The notes beneath the pieces were generated by a model. It was not told the DNA's origin. It did not search any database and worked only from the letters and a program-made list of their open reading frames with translations. A program made the translations under genes and the position numbers. A DNA stretch of 64,000 nucleotides from a virus: positions 1 through 64,000 of IMG/VR virus record IMGVR_UViG_3300043464_001711. One strand, written 5' to 3'. Below, piece after piece: positions 5,138 to 32,639 of this stretch. Numbering within the stretch: position 1 is the stretch's first letter; every line of letters begins with the position of its first letter.

Positions 5138-6553
5138 ATGGCTAGAAAAATAATTATACCTGAAAAAGATATTAAAGAAATAATTAGATTATATACTGAA
5201 GAACTAGTTGGTACCCCCACATTAAGTAAAATGTTTAATTATCATAAATCTATAATTAATAGAACATTAAAAGAAAATGATATTAATTTAGACACACCAG
5301 GTAGACGTTATCTAGGTGGTAAAAAAGTTTCTGATTCTAAATACTATAAAAAAAATAAAAATACAATATTAGAAAGAACTAGTGAATGGGCTAAAGATAA
5401 TAGGCCTCATCTTAGAGAATATCATACTAAATGGAGAGAAAAAAATAAAGAAATTCTAAATAAAAGAAAAAGAGAATATGAGAAAAATAAAAAAGATTCC
5501 GACCCAAAATATAAACTAAGTTCTTATACTCGTACAGCAATATATACTTGTTTAAAAGAACGTAACATTAAAAAATATAATAAAACTTTTAATTTGTTAC
5601 CATACACATTAGAAGATTTAATGTATCACTTAGAAAAACAATTTTCTAATGGTATGTCATGGGACAATTATGGTGAATGGCATGTAGACCACATAAAACC
5701 TATGTCTAGTTTTGATATGATAGAAGAGGGTGATAAAGAATTTTTAGAATGTTGGTCATTAAAAAATTTAAGACCTTTATGGGGTGAAGAAAATTTATCA
5801 AAAGGTAGTAAAATATTAGCACACCAATACAGAATAAGAATAGAAAAGGAAATAGAAGAAAAAGAAAAAATTAATTTTGATTATACAAAAGCCACTTTAA
5901 AAAATTGTATAGTAAAACCAATAAATAGATATCTGTGTGAAAAAATTATAAAAGAATATGAATGGTTAGGGTATTTACCTAAATACACAAAATATTATTT
6001 TGGTATATTTTTTAATATAGATAATGAGGAGGTTTTGGGAGGCGTTGTTGCTTATCAACCAGAATATGGTGATAATATAGGTGTATGGGATAAATATGGT
6101 TTTACCGGTAAAATAATACAATTAAGTCGTGGTGTTTGTTTGTGGTGGACACCAAAAAATTCAGCTTCATTTATGATTTCAAAAACACTTAATTGGCTTA
6201 AAAATAATACTGAATATGAAATTGTTTCAGCCACTACTGACCCTAATGCTGGTGAAATAGGTACGATATACCAATCATTGGGTTGGCATTATGTTGGTTG
6301 TATGGATGGTAATAAGAAAAAAAATGGTGAGGAAATTATTAGATATGGATATAAAATTGATGGTAAAATATATAATCAGAGACATATAAGAAAAATGATT
6401 GGTACCGCTAAAAAAGAAGAAGTTCTAAAACATTTTCCTAATGTAATAATTTTTAATTCAGGTAGAAAAAGAAGGTATTTTAAATTTATTAAAAATGAGT
6501 TTATACATAAAACAACAATATCAAATATGATTAAAAATTACCCTAAAAGATAA
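5138..6553 (+). CDS. HTH + HNH endonuclease fused to a Mom-like (GNAT) DNA-modification domain
   Basis: WHVDHIKP...NLRPLWGEENLSKG (HNH); YEWLG...QLSRGVC...PKNSASFMISKTL...DPNAGEIGTIYQSLGWHYVG (Mom-like). Confidence 0.75.
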   Translation: MARKIIIPEKDIKEIIRLYTEELVGTPTLSKMFNYHKSIINRTLKENDINLDTPGRRYLGGKKVSDSKYYKKNKNTILERTSEWAKDNRPHLREYHTKWREKNKEILNKRKREYEKNKKDSDPKYKLSSYTRTAIYTCLKERNIKKYNKTFNLLPYTLEDLMYHLEKQFSNGMSWDNYGEWHVDHIKPMSSFDMIEEGDKEFLECWSLKNLRPLWGEENLSKGSKILAHQYRIRIEKEIEEKEKINFDYTKATLKNCIVKPINRYLCEKIIKEYEWLGYLPKYTKYYFGIFFNIDNEEVLGGVVAYQPEYGDNIGVWDKYGFTGKIIQLSRGVCLWWTPKNSASFMISKTLNWLKNNTEYEIVSATTDPNAGEIGTIYQSLGWHYVGCMDGNKKKNGEEIIRYGYKIDGKIYNQRHIRKMIGTAKKEEVLKHFPNVIIFNSGRKRRYFKFIKNEFIHKTTISNMIKNYPKR

Positions 6554-7540: not shown

Positions 7541-8281
7541 CTAGTCTTTAATACCTTTTTTATTTGCTACTTCTTTGTTTGTAAGACCGTTCTCAAGTCT
7601 ATCGTTAATGATATTCATGATATCACTACCCAACATACCATAAACTTTCATGGCGTTACTAACATTCATTTGAGCGTCAACAACATCCCAAATTGTGATA
7701 CCATCTGATTTATTACGGTCATTATGGAACGCTACTTTGGAGAAAATATTATTTCTTGCCTCACCCTCTTTTATTGATTTATCAATAACATATACTAGGA
7801 CACCATTCTCAGTGTATTGTTTAAAGTATTTGCCATAGTTATGGTCTTCACTTGCTACACACCATTTAGTGGCTTTTCCGTATAGGTTAGAACTACGTGT
7901 AGAAAGAGGGAAAACAACCAACCAACGGTCATCCTCATAAAGAACCTCAGTTTCTTTTTTCTTAACCTCAGAACGAGTGATTTTTTCTTTAGCTGTTTTA
8001 ACTGCCTCAATAATGTCTTGATTAGATTCGTAAGAATAGATATCTTTATTATCCAATAAATTACGTTGTGAAAGGTCTTCAAAATCTTTTATTACCTCAA
8101 ACATTTCTTTAAATGTTTCATTACGTAATTCGTTATTAATCCACTCTACCCATTCAGCGGTACATTTAATCATGAACGGGAGGTATTTATTGGACTTTGA
8201 TGGGTCCATGGTAGCCAATACATCAATTACGTCAATTGTGTAATTTGGGTTTTGTGTCTTTAGGTCTTTAACTCTTGCCAT
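7541..8281 (-). CDS. Conserved phage protein (PcfJ-like YGxxTKWC motif)
   Basis: LYEDDRWLVVFP...YGKATKWCVAS. Confidence 0.6.
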   Translation of the reverse strand: MARVKDLKTQNPNYTIDVIDVLATMDPSKSNKYLPFMIKCTAEWVEWINNELRNETFKEMFEVIKDFEDLSQRNLLDNKDIYSYESNQDIIEAVKTAKEKITRSEVKKKETEVLYEDDRWLVVFPLSTRSSNLYGKATKWCVASEDHNYGKYFKQYTENGVLVYVIDKSIKEGEARNNIFSKVAFHNDRNKSDGITIWDVVDAQMNVSNAMKVYGMLGSDIMNIINDRLENGLTNKEVANKKGIKD

Positions 8282-26315: not shown

Positions 26316-27853
26316 TATCCTCTATTTTGATATATAAAATGTAATTGTTGTTGTACTTGTTCTGGTGTGGCTAAAGGTGTTTCTGTGGGTGTAATCCCAT
26401 GTTTCTTTTTATACCACATAGTACCTTTTCTAAAATTATCGTTCCATGTTGGTGTTCTAGCTATAGTGCTTTCAGCGATAGAGTTTGGTATGTCTGTTAG
26501 GTATTTCCAACTTTCGTTAATATCAGCAAAATACCAAAAAGCTGGGTGATACATTTTTTTAATTGCCTGATAGGTGTGTTCTACATGTTCCCACGCATTT
26601 TTAAATGCTGGGTCAAAACCACCAATATCCTCTAATACAGGCCTATAATAATAAGAAAATGCTCCAACACAATTTGGGTATAAAGCTATTTTAACTTCCT
26701 TGTTTAATTCATCACCATTTTCATAAGGAATAATCATTCTAGGATTTGGTTTTCCGTTTACATCTTTTCTTTCTGATAAATCGGTAAAGCCTTTACTACC
26801 AATTTTATTTGCTGGACCATGTAATGCAAAATTTAAATGTTTAATCCCTGATATTAAAGAATGTCTAATATATTCTTTGAATACATTTTCATCTTTAATA
26901 AGAATGTCATCTTCCATAATAAAAATGTGTTCACAACCTTTTTCCATTAAATAATTAATAGCGGTTGTTTTGGCAGCACCAACAGACATATTTGTTTTAT
27001 GTTGTATAATATGCGCTTGTTCGGGATAAGCATCACTAGGGTAAGGTGTTCCGTCATTAACAATAACAAAAGTTTTAATCCATTTTGGGACTGTAAAAGC
27101 ACTTTCCCTTATTCTATGTTCTGCATTATAAGTTACCATAGCAAAACCAATAGAATTAGGATCAAAATCTAACTTTTCTTCAAAAGTTTTATTACTGGTT
27201 AATCTAACAGGCAATTTATCTTTATATTTTTCTTCAAATTTTATTTTATTTTCCTCCCATTGTTGGTTAGTCATCCCTATCGACAGATGGGTCACTCTAA
27301 TCAAAGTGGTTAAACCAATTTTAACACCATCTAAATAATTAGGGAAACAAAAAGATATGTCGTAAAAATGAAAACCATCAAAGTCTTCATCAAAATCGTG
27401 TTTTATTTTTGTTTTATCTACAGCAAAAAATAAACCGTCTAAAACAACCATTTCGGTTATTTTGTTTCCTTGGTCTTTAGAATAATAATTAGTCCATTTT
27501 TTACCTTCATGCTGGTGGGAAACAATCCCATTCATAGATTCTTTCAAAGTCCACCATCTACCGTCTAGTAAATCTGTTGTACCGGCGATACCAATTATAC
27601 CGTATTCAGGATTTTTATTAAATAACTTGTCTAATTTTTGACCCCAGTTTTTAGTTTCATGTATTATATCATCATGACAAAAAACAACAATATTATTAGA
27701 AGACTCTTTTAAACCTTTATTATAGAATTTAGTTAAGGATTCACCTTGGTTAATGTATTCTATAACTTCTATATTTTTAATACCAGAAGTTTTTTTAATA
27801 TGTTCTACATATTCAGGATTATGTTCTCTTGTACAATAAACAACACTAATCAT
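26315..27853 (-). CDS. Two-domain GT2-like glycosyltransferase
   Basis: FCHDD...VVLDGLF domain plus IVNDG...IMEDD domain. Confidence 0.8.
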   Translation of the reverse strand: MISVVYCTREHNPEYVEHIKKTSGIKNIEVIEYINQGESLTKFYNKGLKESSNNIVVFCHDDIIHETKNWGQKLDKLFNKNPEYGIIGIAGTTDLLDGRWWTLKESMNGIVSHQHEGKKWTNYYSKDQGNKITEMVVLDGLFFAVDKTKIKHDFDEDFDGFHFYDISFCFPNYLDGVKIGLTTLIRVTHLSIGMTNQQWEENKIKFEEKYKDKLPVRLTSNKTFEEKLDFDPNSIGFAMVTYNAEHRIRESAFTVPKWIKTFVIVNDGTPYPSDAYPEQAHIIQHKTNMSVGAAKTTAINYLMEKGCEHIFIMEDDILIKDENVFKEYIRHSLISGIKHLNFALHGPANKIGSKGFTDLSERKDVNGKPNPRMIIPYENGDELNKEVKIALYPNCVGAFSYYYRPVLEDIGGFDPAFKNAWEHVEHTYQAIKKMYHPAFWYFADINESWKYLTDIPNSIAESTIARTPTWNDNFRKGTMWYKKKHGITPTETPLATPEQVQQQLHFIYQNRG

Positions 27854-27874
27854 ATTTTAAAATTATCTTTTATA

Positions 27875-28366
27875 TTATTTTTCTATTTCTATAATATTAA
27901 CAGGTTCTTCACAATAAACAGAAAGATGACAAGCGGCTTTAATAGCCTCTTTAACTGAGTTACCTAAATAAAGAGCAGCTAAAGCGAAATCCATCCCAGC
28001 ACCAATAGCTGTGTAATCTGTTACTTCCTTACACCAAAAACCTTCCATTACAAAAGCCTTTCCTTCAAAAACAATAACATATTGATTACTTAGTTTAGGT
28101 TCTTCAGTTTTATTTCTATACCAATCCTGAAATTCTGACATAAACTCTACTAAAGCATCTACTGAGGCTTCTCTAGGTTTTCTTGTTTTACAATAAATCA
28201 AAAATAAACCACCTTCTTGTGCATCACCACAATCACCAATAACCATCCCATTGACTTGATTAAGTTTAGCTAATTTATCTTTTTCTTGGGTCCATCCTGA
28301 TACTAAAATACTATCAGCCCCAATTGTGATTTTTTTATTAGTTACTTTTACTGCTACTACTGACAT
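27875..28366 (-). CDS. Ntn-hydrolase, proteasome-beta/HslV-like
   Basis: MSVVAV...IGADS...K; AIGAGMDFALAAL...A.KAA. Confidence 0.7.
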   Translation of the reverse strand: MSVVAVKVTNKKITIGADSILVSGWTQEKDKLAKLNQVNGMVIGDCGDAQEGGLFLIYCKTRKPREASVDALVEFMSEFQDWYRNKTEEPKLSNQYVIVFEGKAFVMEGFWCKEVTDYTAIGAGMDFALAALYLGNSVKEAIKAACHLSVYCEEPVNIIEIEK

Positions 28367-28369
28367 TTT

Positions 28370-28696
28370 TTAAGCTTTTGTTGTTATATTATAAACTCCG
28401 TTAGTTAAAGTTAAATTATCCGTATTTGATGTTGTATACCAAATTTGTGGATAAGTTGGTGGGTAGGTCCTTGTATAAGGACTTGGGTTTGGGTCAATTG
28501 GTACAAAAGGATTTATTGGGGTGTGTGGTGTTATCGTTATAGGATTATTCCACTCCCTAATTTTCTCAACCTTTAACGTAAATTCTCTCCATAACCCACC
28601 TGGTAAAATACTATTTATTTGTTCATAGAATTCATGAAGATTAACATCCTCTTCTATGGTAATAGTTTTATTTTCTGTATCTAATTGTAATTTCAT
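28370..28696 (-). CDS. Hypothetical protein
   Basis: ORF with a Pro-rich C-terminus. Confidence 0.6.
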   Translation of the reverse strand: MKLQLDTENKTITIEEDVNLHEFYEQINSILPGGLWREFTLKVEKIREWNNPITITPHTPINPFVPIDPNPSPYTRTYPPTYPQIWYTTSNTDNLTLTNGVYNITTKA

Positions 28697-29010
28697 TATT
28701 TTGTACCTGTAGAACCAAATCCCCCCTCACCACGTTCAGATTCGTTTATTTCAGCCACTTCAATTAAATCTCCGTAATCAGAACTTATTCTATGGGCGAT
28801 TACACCTTGTGCAATTCTTTCTCCTTTATCCCATGTAAATTCTTCGTTACTTAAATTAACTAAAAGAACTTTTATTTCTCCTCTATACCCACAATTATGT
28901 ATTAGGTGGTTATTACAAAAAAAATTACTATTATTTTTTACAGTAATATCATAAGTATCGACTTCACCAATATTTTCAATCCTTTTAATTTTAGTTAGTT
29001 TCATTTTCAA
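28696..29010 (-). CDS. dut: Split intein C-fragment (39 aa) fused to the dUTPase C-terminal extein
   Basis: TYDITV..NFF.N..LIHN|CGYRGEI...GERIAQ...RGEGGFGSTG (intein blocks F/G, then dUTPase motifs 3-5). Confidence 0.95.
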   Translation of the reverse strand: MKMKLTKIKRIENIGEVDTYDITVKNNSNFFCNNHLIHNCGYRGEIKVLLVNLSNEEFTWDKGERIAQGVIAHRISSDYGDLIEVAEINESERGEGGFGSTGTK

Positions 29011-29878
29011 TAAAATTTTTTAGTTCATTAATATTATAAAATATTTTATAGTTATTATATATTTTTTTAGTAAAATTTTCTTTAATCAACACTTCTTCAC
29101 TAACCCAACCCTTCATTTCAACAATCCATTCCTCACCATTTTTTAATTTTATTAAAAAATCTGGTATGTAATTCTTTTTAACCCCATTTAAAATATAAGG
29201 TATGACTATTTTATGTTTATTAGTCCAACTTTCAACTAAAGATGTTGTATCTAAATAAACCATAGACTCTTCTTCTAGTGATGAGGCATAATAATATTTT
29301 TCACCTAATTTATCAAGATAGTAACCAGTTTTATAGATACTTTTCTCATTATTTAATTTACCGTTTAAAAATAATTCTGTAACTATTTTTGACATCTTTT
29401 CTTTAAACGTATTATTTTTTTCACATCTACCATCGTTTAATATTCTCTTTAAAGAGTTAATAACTTTTTCCCTATACTCAATATTTCCCCATCTTTTTTT
29501 AGAAGACTCTGATATTTTAGTGATTCTTTCTTCACTCTTAACCCATTTCTTAAATTCTTCAGTTTTATGATAGTTAGTAAAGCCACTAAAAATGTTAGGG
29601 TCTTCTTTATGTATTTTTTTAATTTTTTCTGACATTTTTTGTTTAAACTCAGTTTTATTATGTGTAATTTTTCTGATATTAGACATTTTTTGTTTAAACT
29701 CAACCTCAGACCATTTATTTTTTTCTCTTTCAGATATTTTTTTTCTATACTCTTCTGAAATTATTTCAGCCCCAGGGAACATCTCTTGGTATCTTTCTTT
29801 ATTTATTTTATGTGTGTGTTTCAAATGATCTTTTATCGAACATTTTTTTAAGATCCCACATATTTTACATTCCACCAT
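28991..29878 (-). mobile_element. Free-standing homing endonuclease: zinc finger, helical repeats and TnsA-like PD-(D/E)xK domain
   Basis: CKICG...HLKHTH; YASSLE...YIPDF...IVEMKG; located between the split-intein halves. Confidence 0.8.
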
Positions 29879-29916
29879 AATACTCAGTATATATTATATA
29901 AATAGTATAATGGTGA

Positions 29917-30591
29917 TTAAAAGATAATTATCTCATCTTCATGTGTTAAATTAATAGCTAATTTCCACCCATTATTAGTGTAAATTTCTGTATTTTCAGT
30001 AACTTCTAACACACCATTTTCTGTTTCTATTCTTAAAACATTTTGTATACCAGTGTTATGTATTTTACTAATAGTGTCTTTTTCTATTTCAAAAGTTTCT
30101 ATGTTAAAAGAATAAACAATATCGTTAATATTTAATTGATTTATAGATTTATCCCCATCAACAGTTTTAACTTTCATTTCACCACTAAAACAATCAACAG
30201 TTCCAGGTGTATTCAATACTGTTATACCATTTTTATAAGCCAACCCACTTCTAGGTCTGATTTGCATTTCGTAACCATCAGGTAATTCAAAATATAATCC
30301 TGTGCCGACTAATTTTCTTTCTAAAGGTTTTAGAGAACCACTTTCATTGGCTCTTAAATCAAAACCTGAATCACCTTCTTTTGCGTAAACAGGATTTTTA
30401 TTATCAGATTTATTAATATATTTAATTTGTATTTTTTCTTTTTCAATTTGACCTTTTTTCTTAGCATCATATTCTTGAACAGATTCAGCTAATTTGATTG
30501 CCATTAAAATTTCTTGTCTTGTAGTTTCAGGTAACATACCCATTTTAGAAAGTTCCTTTAATTCATCTATTTGTTGTTGAATTTCTCCCAT
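29917..30591 (-). CDS. dut: dUTPase N-terminal extein fused to the split intein N-fragment (91 aa)
   Basis: GDSGFDL, IRPRSGLA, NTPGTVD|CFSGEMKV (block A), then LEVTENTEIYT..GW..A..L...D and a stop. Confidence 0.95.
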   Translation of the reverse strand: MGEIQQQIDELKELSKMGMLPETTRQEILMAIKLAESVQEYDAKKKGQIEKEKIQIKYINKSDNKNPVYAKEGDSGFDLRANESGSLKPLERKLVGTGLYFELPDGYEMQIRPRSGLAYKNGITVLNTPGTVDCFSGEMKVKTVDGDKSINQLNINDIVYSFNIETFEIEKDTISKIHNTGIQNVLRIETENGVLEVTENTEIYTNNGWKLAINLTHEDEIIIF

Positions 30592-31304
30592 TATTTTAAA
30601 TTATTTAATTTTGTAATTATATCAACAAGAGCTTTAACATCTCTTTCACAATATTCTTTGATTTCCTCGTGTTTACCCTCCCAATAATTAGTGGTTACGT
30701 TATCACCTTTAACATCACCATTTTTAGGTGAGTCAATATCTAAAACAGAACAAATCAAATCTAAAGAACCTAAAGACCAATTATTACCAAATTGCCATAC
30801 TTCTTTAGTATCTACAACCCTTAAGTCCCAAGGTTTAGTTTCATGTGTAGGAAACAATTTAGGTGGTTTCATTCCGTTAATAAAATATCTTTTACCTAAA
30901 AAAGGGATGTCAAATATTTTAATACTTTGACCACATAAATCAAAACCAAGTGGTTCAATTTTATCAAAGATTTTTCTAGTTTCAGTTAAGATATGTATTT
31001 CATCTTCACCATAAAAAGATTCAAATTTAATCTCACCCATTTTTGTTACAAATGCCATAGAAACACAAGCCACTTTACCAAACTCAGGAAAGAATGCTGC
31101 GGTTTGTCTATAAACTTCTTGGTGCATTTCACCAATAGTCATTAATTCAGAATCAATTCTAGATTCGTCAGTAATCTTCTTACGAAAAGAATCGTAATAA
31201 GACTCCCACATCTTTAACTTATCTTCAGGCATGTCATATAAGTCTTCATATTGACTTACACTTTCAATATCAAAAAATAATAATTTATCTATATTAAACT
31301 TCAT
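30591..31304 (-). CDS. PolB-related standalone 3'-5' exonuclease (DEDDy)
   Basis: FFDIES, FDIPFL, EYCERDV. Confidence 0.85.
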   Translation of the reverse strand: MKFNIDKLLFFDIESVSQYEDLYDMPEDKLKMWESYYDSFRKKITDESRIDSELMTIGEMHQEVYRQTAAFFPEFGKVACVSMAFVTKMGEIKFESFYGEDEIHILTETRKIFDKIEPLGFDLCGQSIKIFDIPFLGKRYFINGMKPPKLFPTHETKPWDLRVVDTKEVWQFGNNWSLGSLDLICSVLDIDSPKNGDVKGDNVTTNYWEGKHEEIKEYCERDVKALVDIITKLNNLK

Positions 31305-32639
31305 TAGTATGTTCTATTAATTGTTCAACTTCTTTTTGTTTATCATTTAAAATAGTCTTATAGAAAGACGCTCTAGTGTGTGTGACAGTATCTATATGAT
31401 ATTTGTCTTTAACAGTTTCATATAGATTATGTGACAATAACTCAACAAGAGTAGGATTTTCTTTTAACTTTTTCAAGGCTTTATACCAGTCCTTATGATT
31501 TTTAGAAGTGTCAATTAAAATAGCATTACCCTTTTCATTGATATTACCACCGTACTCAAATAAGTTTACACAATCAATCTGGTACGGTCCATAATTTTGT
31601 GCTATTAAAGCTTTTTTATGGAAACCCGACTCAATAACTTTTAACTGAGATTTTACTTTATTAAACATGTGTTCTTTAAGTGGTGACATCGATACATCAA
31701 ATAGATTGTAATTTGATGCATAAGTAGTAATAGGTTTAGTCCAAACCCTACGATATAATTCATTTAAATTATTATAACGTTTATCACTACTTTCATCATA
31801 TTTTTTTAATTGTTTTTGATAATCTTCTGGTAGTAAATTATATTCTTTAGTAAACATTTCTTCATATCTAGCCCATATACTTTCTTGTGGTTCTATTTTT
31901 CTTGTTCTTTGTTGACCAGTATTTCTATCTATTTCAGTTACATTACCTCTAGTATCAAAACCACACAACACCATTTGTGTGTCATTTTTATTTTCACCTA
32001 AAAATCTACTAACACTATCACCAATAATTTTTAAATCATGAAAATGTGAAGAACCGCCTAACCAACCAAAACGTAAAGTTTTTTCTGTATTTTCTGTGTT
32101 AGGTGTAAATTGTTTTTCGGAAGGGTCAATTGCGTTTGGTAAAACAATTACATTTTTATTTAAAACACTTATTTCTTTAGCGAAAATGGGTGTAGTAGTT
32201 GTTACGTAATTAACTCTTTTAATATTTTCTTTAATTTTTTGTGGTAAATTATCATTAATAATCATCTGATGTGCCGGATGTTCTTTCCCAGGTTCCCAAT
32301 AATCATCTAAATCCATTATTGTTATAATACCCATCGAATGGATTTTATCTAAAATAGAAAACATATCTTCCATATAAACTTGTCTTAACATACCGTCTTT
32401 TATCATGGGTAATGTTCTATGGAAATGGACGATATCAAATTTTTTCAAAAAACTATCATCGTAACTAAAATTATCTGTACCAGCCGTAATAATTTCGATA
32501 TAAAAATCATCATTATATAACTCCTGTAATTTCATGTGGGGTTCCACTGAACGAAATTTACTTAACTTACCCCCGTTCTATCTGAAGGAAAAACTAAAAC
32601 GTTAATCTTCTGAACGGGGGCATTTATACTTTTTTTCAT
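31294..32639 (-). CDS. GT-B glycosyltransferase; its apparent N-terminus (32639-32565) is out of frame because of a 5-nt duplication
   Basis: MKKSINAPVQKINVLVFPSDRTGVS*, then shifted frame KFRSVEPH...; MDLDDYW, GWLGGSSH, KSQLKVIE motifs. Confidence 0.8.

Follow-up and report, generated by a model that had tools for sequence, protein, structure and literature searches.

The interrupted dUTPase gene

The DNA analysed here (the window, 64,000 nucleotides) is the first 64 kb of IMG/VR virus record IMGVR_UViG_3300043464_001711, and the subject of this study is a dUTPase gene within it that is divided into two parts by the halves of a putative split intein and by a free-standing nuclease gene. The record is linear and 93,997 bp long, with a CheckV completeness of 29%, and the G+C content of the window is about 28%. 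Since the genome encodes a major head protein and a tail sheath as well as a family B DNA polymerase and a helicase, it belongs to a large tailed phage whose tail is contractile. Three consecutive open reading frames (ORFs) are present on the minus strand, at 29917-30591 (224 amino acids, aa), 28991-29878 (295 aa), and 28696-29010 (104 aa); all features of the locus described below are on this strand.

The first ORF begins with the N-extein (dUTPase residues 1-133, 30193..30591), which matches Pfam dUTPase (E 6.5e-9, profile 6-64) as well as PHROG 135 (dUTPase, E 9e-28) and contains a helical N-terminal extension of about 55 aa, motif 1 (DSGFDLRA), motif 2 (RPRSG), and the opening half of motif 3, up to ...PGTVD. 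The codon of Cys134 (30192-30190), equal to Cys1 of the intein, opens an N-fragment of 91 aa (29920..30192) that starts with CFSGE, includes block B (LEVTENTEIYT), and ends in ...DEIIIF. The ORF is closed by a TAA stop (29917..29919), and an equivalent stop was found in 13 of 13 related variants. The nuclease gene (28991..29878, 295 aa plus stop) follows, and the third ORF then supplies the intein C-fragment (28894..29004), with block F (TYDITV...NFFCNN) and block G (HLIHN) and a match to Pfam Intein_splicing (E 2e-5, profile positions 120-155). The C-extein (28696..28893, 65 aa plus stop) starts with Cys+1 (28891-28893) and continues with GYRGE, the rest of motif 3, motif 4 (GERIAQ), and motif 5 (RGEGGFGSTG); its match to Pfam dUTPase (E 6.9e-11, profile 71-129), like that of the N-extein, is above the curated threshold, and the PHROGs annotation of the split dUTPase is concordant with Pfam. 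The split point thus lies between blocks B and F, with a stop after ...IIIF and a separate start for the C-half, and is the same in 13 related variants.

The host sequence breaks off after ...PGTVD, the insert runs from CFSGE to ...HLIHN, and the host resumes with CGYRGE. When the insert is removed, the two exteins add up to 198 aa (133 + 65), the same length as uninterrupted relatives, and the five motifs of a trimeric dUTPase (Pfam PF00692) stand in order. An uninterrupted metagenomic dUTPase of 198 aa (P0005) is 97% identical to the N-extein of the window; the two proteins differ at four of 133 positions in the N-extein and two of 65 in the C-extein, hence at 6/198, and one of these differences is the +1 residue, which is Cys in the window and Thr in P0005.

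An initial annotation, made from the sequence alone, had proposed this layout with its coordinates, with Cys134 opening a 91-aa fragment that ends at a stop, a second fragment ending in His-Asn before Cys+1, GYRGE and motifs 4-5, a zinc-finger PD-(D/E)xK nuclease of 295 aa between the halves, and a rebuilt dUTPase of 198 aa, all of which agree with the ORFs, Pfam matches, alignments, and models reported here. It had also given the C-fragment, correctly placed as an intein C-half, a length of 39 aa from a TTG start. A length of 37 aa is more likely, because the related variants have a conserved ATG that overlaps the nuclease stop only briefly, and such an ATG is present at 29004 in the window, with an overlap of 14 nucleotides (nt). 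The C-half starts with ATG in 12 of 13 related variants and with TTG in the remaining one (L040); nine variants have an overlap of 14 nt with the nuclease stop, three have one of 20 nt, and L040 has one of 53 nt.

Filled and empty alleles

Related loci were collected from IMG/VR by a scan with an alignment of the N-half. The same three-part layout, consisting of N-extein with N-fragment, nuclease orthologue, and C-fragment with C-extein, was found in about 35 viral loci, 15 of which are distinct, and the N-half protein of the window is encoded on five contigs, with a 99%-identical variant on one more. Because so many independent viral loci share it and the N-half protein recurs on several contigs, the arrangement is not a product of chance. 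Genomes with this cassette (filled) and without it (empty) have the same neighbourhood around the dUTPase gene: a glycosyltransferase, a 3'-5' exonuclease, the dUTPase, two small ORFs, and another glycosyltransferase.

A filled locus (L003) and an empty one (L075) have flanks that are 99.8-100% identical, and the difference between them is a stretch of exactly 1302 bp that opens with the Cys1 codon and closes with the codon of the terminal Asn, together with the +1 codon, TGT in L003 and ACA in L075. Without a cassette, the junction peptide reads GTVD/TGYRGE (the slash marks the insertion site), and its coding DNA reads ...CCTGGAACTGTWGAT before the junction and ACWGGNTATAGAGG... after it. The same two genomes, otherwise 99.9% identical, show a second nuclease presence/absence polymorphism, an insertion of 889 bp in L003 (10729-11617) that is absent from L075 and encodes a GIY-YIG-type endonuclease with NUMOD3-like repeats.

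Synonymous divergence (dS) between L006 and L014 is 0.32-0.39 in the cassette and 1.17-1.43 in the exteins, three to four times lower in the former, and a trend in the same direction was seen in L016/L031, L016/L032, L031/L032, and L008/L020. In all 78 pairs, conservation is higher in the intein than in the exteins. Compared with P0003, the window is 73% identical in the N-extein and 53% in the intein, whereas compared with P0025 the order is reversed (48% and 64%, respectively). In a host-gene tree built from 68 distinct extein sequences, at least four changes are needed to account for the filled state, and well-supported branches force three of these. Within its clade the window alone is filled, the other 35 alleles being empty; the genes next to the empty alleles are 75-97% identical to their counterparts in the window. 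These sequence comparisons support a cassette that behaves as a mobile unit with a history unlike that of the host gene.

Searches beyond these loci were largely negative. A metagenome scan aimed at the DNA of P0005, the 97%-identical empty allele, gave 83% as its closest match; blastn against GenBank phage records gave no similar locus, and tblastn with the C-half gave only ordinary dUTPases. In a prokaryote genome collection of 185,579 species, no match to two intein peptide patterns was confirmed, and the intein clade looks virus-restricted within the sensitivity of this two-pattern search.

Some relatives of the window carry damaged dUTPase genes. L003 has an extra insert of 66 nt with a stop (7860-7925, compared with L075:6554-6557), bounded by AAAT repeats, which severs the motif 5 arm (RGTGGFGSTG); a downstream ATG could restart a peptide of 17 aa. 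In L032, a TAA stands before motif 5 at a position equivalent to the L003 insert, so that motif 5 was detached twice independently. The cassette of L017 (1262-2243) is decaying: an in-frame deletion has removed motif 4 completely and motif 3 partly, leaving a 56-aa gene, and the nuclease is about 20 residues shorter.

Intein fragments and nuclease

A profile of the N-fragments of 14 variants matches solved inteins, namely Spl DnaX (1.9e-5), Ssp DnaB (9.7e-5), and NrdJ-1 (1e-3), as well as Npu DnaB; it also matches a bacterial intein-like domain, with E-values overall ranging from 1.9e-5 to 1e-3. In the window itself, weak Pfam Hint/intein matches span the last 91 aa of the N-half ORF and the first ~39 aa of the C-half ORF.

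The same intein occurs in contiguous (cis) form in a metagenomic protein of 323 aa (P0116; ENA contig of 2374 bp), at the identical dUTPase site and with Ser at +1. Both fragments of the window align to it without gaps, and the cis form corresponds to the two halves plus about three joining residues and lacks a nuclease. It may be ancestral to the split form or may have arisen by deletion of the nuclease gene; a word-based search for further cis forms with the intein part of P0116 recovered only P0116 and P0003. The AlphaFold2 model of P0116 has a mean predicted local distance difference test score (pLDDT) of 81, and over most of the intein part the values run from the high 80s into the 90s. 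By template modelling score (TM), this part matches Ssp DnaB (0.86, root-mean-square deviation 1.7 A), Npu DnaB (0.87), gp41-1 (0.89), NrdJ-1 (0.79), and also the RecA intein, the range over the DnaB, gp41-1, RecA, and NrdJ-1 inteins being 0.79-0.89. The rest of the model superposes on trimeric dUTPases. The profile of 14 variants and this fold lend support to a Hint-domain homology, the lack of which the initial annotation had named as contrary to its reading.

According to the alignments, Cys1 is present in 14 of 14 variants, the terminal His-Asn of block G is invariant in 13-14 variants, and position +1 is occupied by Cys in 12 of 13 variants and by Ser in L040 and P0116, never by another residue. 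The net charge ranges from -7 to -14 in the N-fragments and from +1 to +6 in the C-fragments; the values for the window are -9 and +1, the latter arising from a basic N-terminus. Sequence and model together support the assignment of the element as a naturally split class 1 Hint-domain intein, although the block B His is lacking.

Two further observations concern these proteins. The helical N-terminal extension of the dUTPase (window 30427-30591) is common to filled and empty alleles of this phage group and forms two long helices in the P0116 model. In the same genome but outside the window, at 88090-88368 (L082:1-1998), an open frame of 1703 aa has at its end a Hint-like domain with matches to Pfam AXH (E 2.3e-11) and Intein_splicing (E 1.9e-3). 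This domain shares 31% identity with the N-fragment region of the dUTPase intein and could be the self-processing part of a large structural protein.

The nuclease is composed of a C2H2 zinc finger (29810-29869), a helical repeat region (residues ~42-171), and a TnsA-like PD-(D/E)xK domain (residues ~175-295, 28994-29356). Across 14 orthologues, the zinc-finger residues Cys4, Cys7, His18, and His23 and the residues Glu202, Pro239-Asp240, and Glu254-x-Lys256 are invariant; in a larger alignment of 54 sequences, no change is seen at Glu202, Pro239, Asp240, or Glu254, and at least 90% of the rows have Lys256. Pfam finds Tn7_TnsA-like_N in 12, DUF1064 in nine, and the ROS_MUCR zinc finger in seven of the 14 members. 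A sequence search against solved structures gave no meaningful match, and a fold search was therefore used. The AlphaFold2 model (pLDDT 91.6) has TnsA as its best solved structural match (Foldseek E 4.5e-4, probability 1.0; VIA Z 9.8 over 126 residues), with weaker VIA matches to the Vsr-like I-Bth0305I (Z 5.6), Vsr (5.4), and I-Ssp6803I (4.9). Judged from its conserved residues and predicted fold, the enzyme is a TnsA-type PD-(D/E)xK nuclease, neither GIY-YIG nor Vsr-like. Its family is large (3496 representatives at E <= 1e-3), and similar predicted phage proteins in BFVD carry the labels endonuclease, ROS/MUCR, NUMOD3, or TnsA-like. A NUMOD3 identity of the helical region was considered and rejected: it has no Pfam match at E <= 1, and since the name is found only on similar BFVD proteins, the region is NUMOD3-like at most.

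The N-half stop and the nuclease ATG are separated by 38 bases, which belong to an element of about 45 nt conserved in DNA across 13 variants. In the window this element (29873..29915) has the potential to form a hairpin with the nuclease start codon in its 3' arm (-13.6 kcal/mol, z -2.26; five of 200 shuffled sequences fold equally well). Hairpins upstream of the endonucleases of fractured genes are described by Dassa et al. (PMC2677866), and the one found here probably limits translation of the nuclease by covering its start codon. No minus-strand terminator was found in 28300-31400, and promoter consensus sites in this interval are no commoner than in shuffled sequence, which is consistent with a single transcript; the three genes are probably co-transcribed. 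The hairpin loop was also considered as a late promoter and discarded, as WACTATTTAT occurs three times in the window against 2.3 expected and is not enriched.

Elsewhere in the window, a 471-aa ORF on the plus strand (5138-6553) contains both an endonuclease VII-like region (PHROG 1035) and a Mom-like DNA modification domain (PHROG 1384).

Proposed reassembly of the enzyme and comparison with known systems

The anatomy of the locus, the Hint and nuclease folds, the conservation of catalytic residues, purifying selection, and the presence, absence, and transfer of the cassette are the observations on which our interpretation is built. We consider it quite probable that the dUTPase gene has been fractured by a mobile cassette of split intein and nuclease, that trans-splicing rebuilds the enzyme, and that the nuclease serves homing; splicing, cleavage specificity, and regulation are what we infer. 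The cassette would have entered in frame directly after the Asp of motif 3 (GTVD/xGYRGE), which we take to be the catalytic Asp of characterised dUTPases. It would consist of a split class 1 intein and a free-standing nuclease gene, the latter placed where inteins usually carry an inserted endonuclease. The acidic N-fragment and the basic C-fragment would associate and fold into a Hint domain, and protein trans-splicing would join Asp133 to Cys+1, giving a trimeric dUTPase of 198 aa with Cys where its relatives have Thr. The nuclease, with its zinc finger, helical DNA-binding repeats, and TnsA-like PD-(D/E)xK core, would most likely cut intein-free dUTPase alleles during co-infection, and repair would copy the whole cassette into the cut allele.

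Several observations weigh against this interpretation. The fragments of the window itself score below the Pfam Hint/intein thresholds (E 8.5e-4 to 2e-5), and the Hint fold was modelled on P0116, whose N-fragment is 44% identical to that of the window and stands in for its two halves. All 14 variants have T-x-N-T/S as block B: Thr or Ser fills the His column of TxxH, which was assigned through HMMER alignments with Spl DnaX (TGNH) and Ssp DnaB (TANH). The block F His is replaced by Ser in the window and in L003, while the other split variants keep it. Covariation in the hairpin is weak (two of 12 pairs). The dUTPase lesions in L003, L032, and L017 mean that function can decay after fracture. 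Finally, between the window and its nearest cassette (L003), synonymous divergence is similar in cassette and extein, so that an old presence followed by repeated precise loss in relatives would fit the window lineage as well as a gain from an unsampled donor would.

According to a previous study, the block B His is absent only from very few inteins, the Tko CDC21-1 orthologues, which have a compensatory residue (PMC6333167). We suggest, tentatively and as the less probable case, that the dUTPase inteins are a split clade performing the N-S acyl shift without the block B His, in the window also without the block F His and with the catalytic Asp of the host at -1. If true, the compensatory activation mechanism would be new for split inteins, and the compact pair of 91 + 37 aa might be orthogonal to existing ones.

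Because these histidines are missing, the main rival explanation is that the intein halves do not splice and act only as high-affinity docking domains, holding the dUTPase pieces together non-covalently. The absence of the block B His throughout the clade and of the block F His in the window would fit this view, the charge complementarity of the fragments would favour tight association, and a precedent is the fragmented NrdA of phage Aeh1, which is assembled non-covalently from a gene split by a mobile nuclease (PMC3045599). However, Cys1, the terminal His-Asn, and Cys or Ser at +1 are kept in every variant despite a divergence of 35-50%, and docking alone would need none of them; the natural cis form P0116 must splice to release its enzyme; about 128 extra residues inside motif 3, beside the catalytic Asp, would probably block the active site of the trimer; and inteins without the block B His can splice (PMC6333167). 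We therefore regard docking without splicing as unlikely.

A much smaller probability is given to the view that the dUTPase gene has been inactivated by a selfish insertion and is decaying, with the nuclease alone under selection. The 66-nt insert with a stop in L003, the TAA in L032, and the deletion across motifs 3-4 in L017 are what such decay would produce. In the window, however, the five dUTPase motifs and the three ORFs are undamaged, the exteins are only 6/198 positions away from an uninterrupted allele, and no second dUTPase was found in the 94 kb of the record. Moreover, in the least saturated pair, the ratio of nonsynonymous to synonymous divergence (dN/dS) is 0.13 and 0.14 for the intein halves and 0.11 for the nuclease, so that purifying selection on the intein is as strong as on the nuclease, which argues that both are functional.

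Least probable of all, and hardly to be expected, is RNA splicing of a self-splicing intron around the nuclease ORF into one cis precursor, an outcome that the initial annotation had named as contrary to its reading: the intein halves do share one reading frame in the window, and phages of such kind contain many introns (PMC7886860), but no Rfam family was found at E <= 1 in 27500-31500, the 38 non-coding bases before the nuclease ORF and the overlap of its 3' end with the C-half gene leave no room for a ribozyme core, the intein halves are in different frames in L040, and a conserved ATG of its own starts the C-half gene in 12 of 13 variants.

Trans-splicing of a fractured dUTPase, the reading preferred here, would place the locus in a known class. 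As the initial annotation had noted, genes arranged as N-extein with intein N-fragment, endonuclease, and intein C-fragment with C-extein have been reported before: Dassa, London, Stoddard, Schueler-Furman, and Pietrokovski (2009) described them for gp41 helicase, IMPDH, DnaE, NrdA, NrdJ, DNA ligase, and terminase (PMC2677866). The arrangement itself has thus been known since 2009, and the value of the present case is in the family rather than in the single locus. The terms dUTP and deoxyuridine are absent from the accessible text of that paper, and dUTPase is not among the hosts it gives. No paper on a split intein in a dUTPase was found in the open literature either, a search that did not cover subscription journals and in which the co-mentions of intein and dUTPase/dUTP that we checked were separate; within that scope, the earlier suggestion of a new host protein holds.

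With this locus, dUTPase would join the short list of enzymes fractured by split inteins, and the arrangement would gain a third family of nucleases, that of TnsA-like PD-(D/E)xK enzymes carrying a zinc finger. The filled and empty alleles provide a natural data set on the phage-to-phage spread of intein-nuclease cassettes, and a small natural split intein without the block B His could serve as a ligation tool and as a test case for activation of the first splicing step.

Like the fractured genes of Dassa et al., the locus combines a nucleotide- or DNA-metabolism enzyme split by an intein and, on the same strand between the halves, a free-standing endonuclease; unlike them, as far as the accessible part of that paper describes them, it lacks the block B His, and its nuclease has the E...PD...ExK signature of a TnsA-like PD-(D/E)xK enzyme and a C2H2 zinc finger, whereas theirs are GIY-YIG or Vsr-like (PMC2677866). 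The latter two families describe the known members and do not define the arrangement, and the nuclease reported here lies outside both.

Compared with gp41-1 and NrdJ-1, the dUTPase intein has similar fragment sizes (about 90 + 37 aa), the canonical split site, and Cys1, and the P0116 model fits their structures. However, identity in the structural alignments is only 17-27%, block B is TxN[T/S] instead of TxxH, and the dUTPase clade has Cys at +1 (Ser in two variants) and the motif 3 Asp at -1. Another natural group for comparison is that of the Tko CDC21-1 inteins, which, judging from their name, are presumably contiguous and have archaeal CDC21 proteins as hosts. Like the dUTPase clade, this group occurs naturally without the block B His (PMC6333167). 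The dUTPase clade differs in being split and phage-borne and in having Asp at -1 rather than a bulky residue.

The combination of zinc finger, helical repeats, and nuclease domain is common to many unstudied phage proteins labelled "endonuclease". With TnsA of Tn7 and with I-Ssp6803I, a PD-(D/E)xK homing endonuclease encoded in an intron, the dUTPase-associated nuclease shares a fold like that of restriction enzymes as well as the catalytic Glu, Asp, and Glu-x-Lys. TnsA, its closest structural match, is a transposase subunit and not a homing enzyme, while I-Ssp6803I, which is a homing enzyme, is the weaker structural match.

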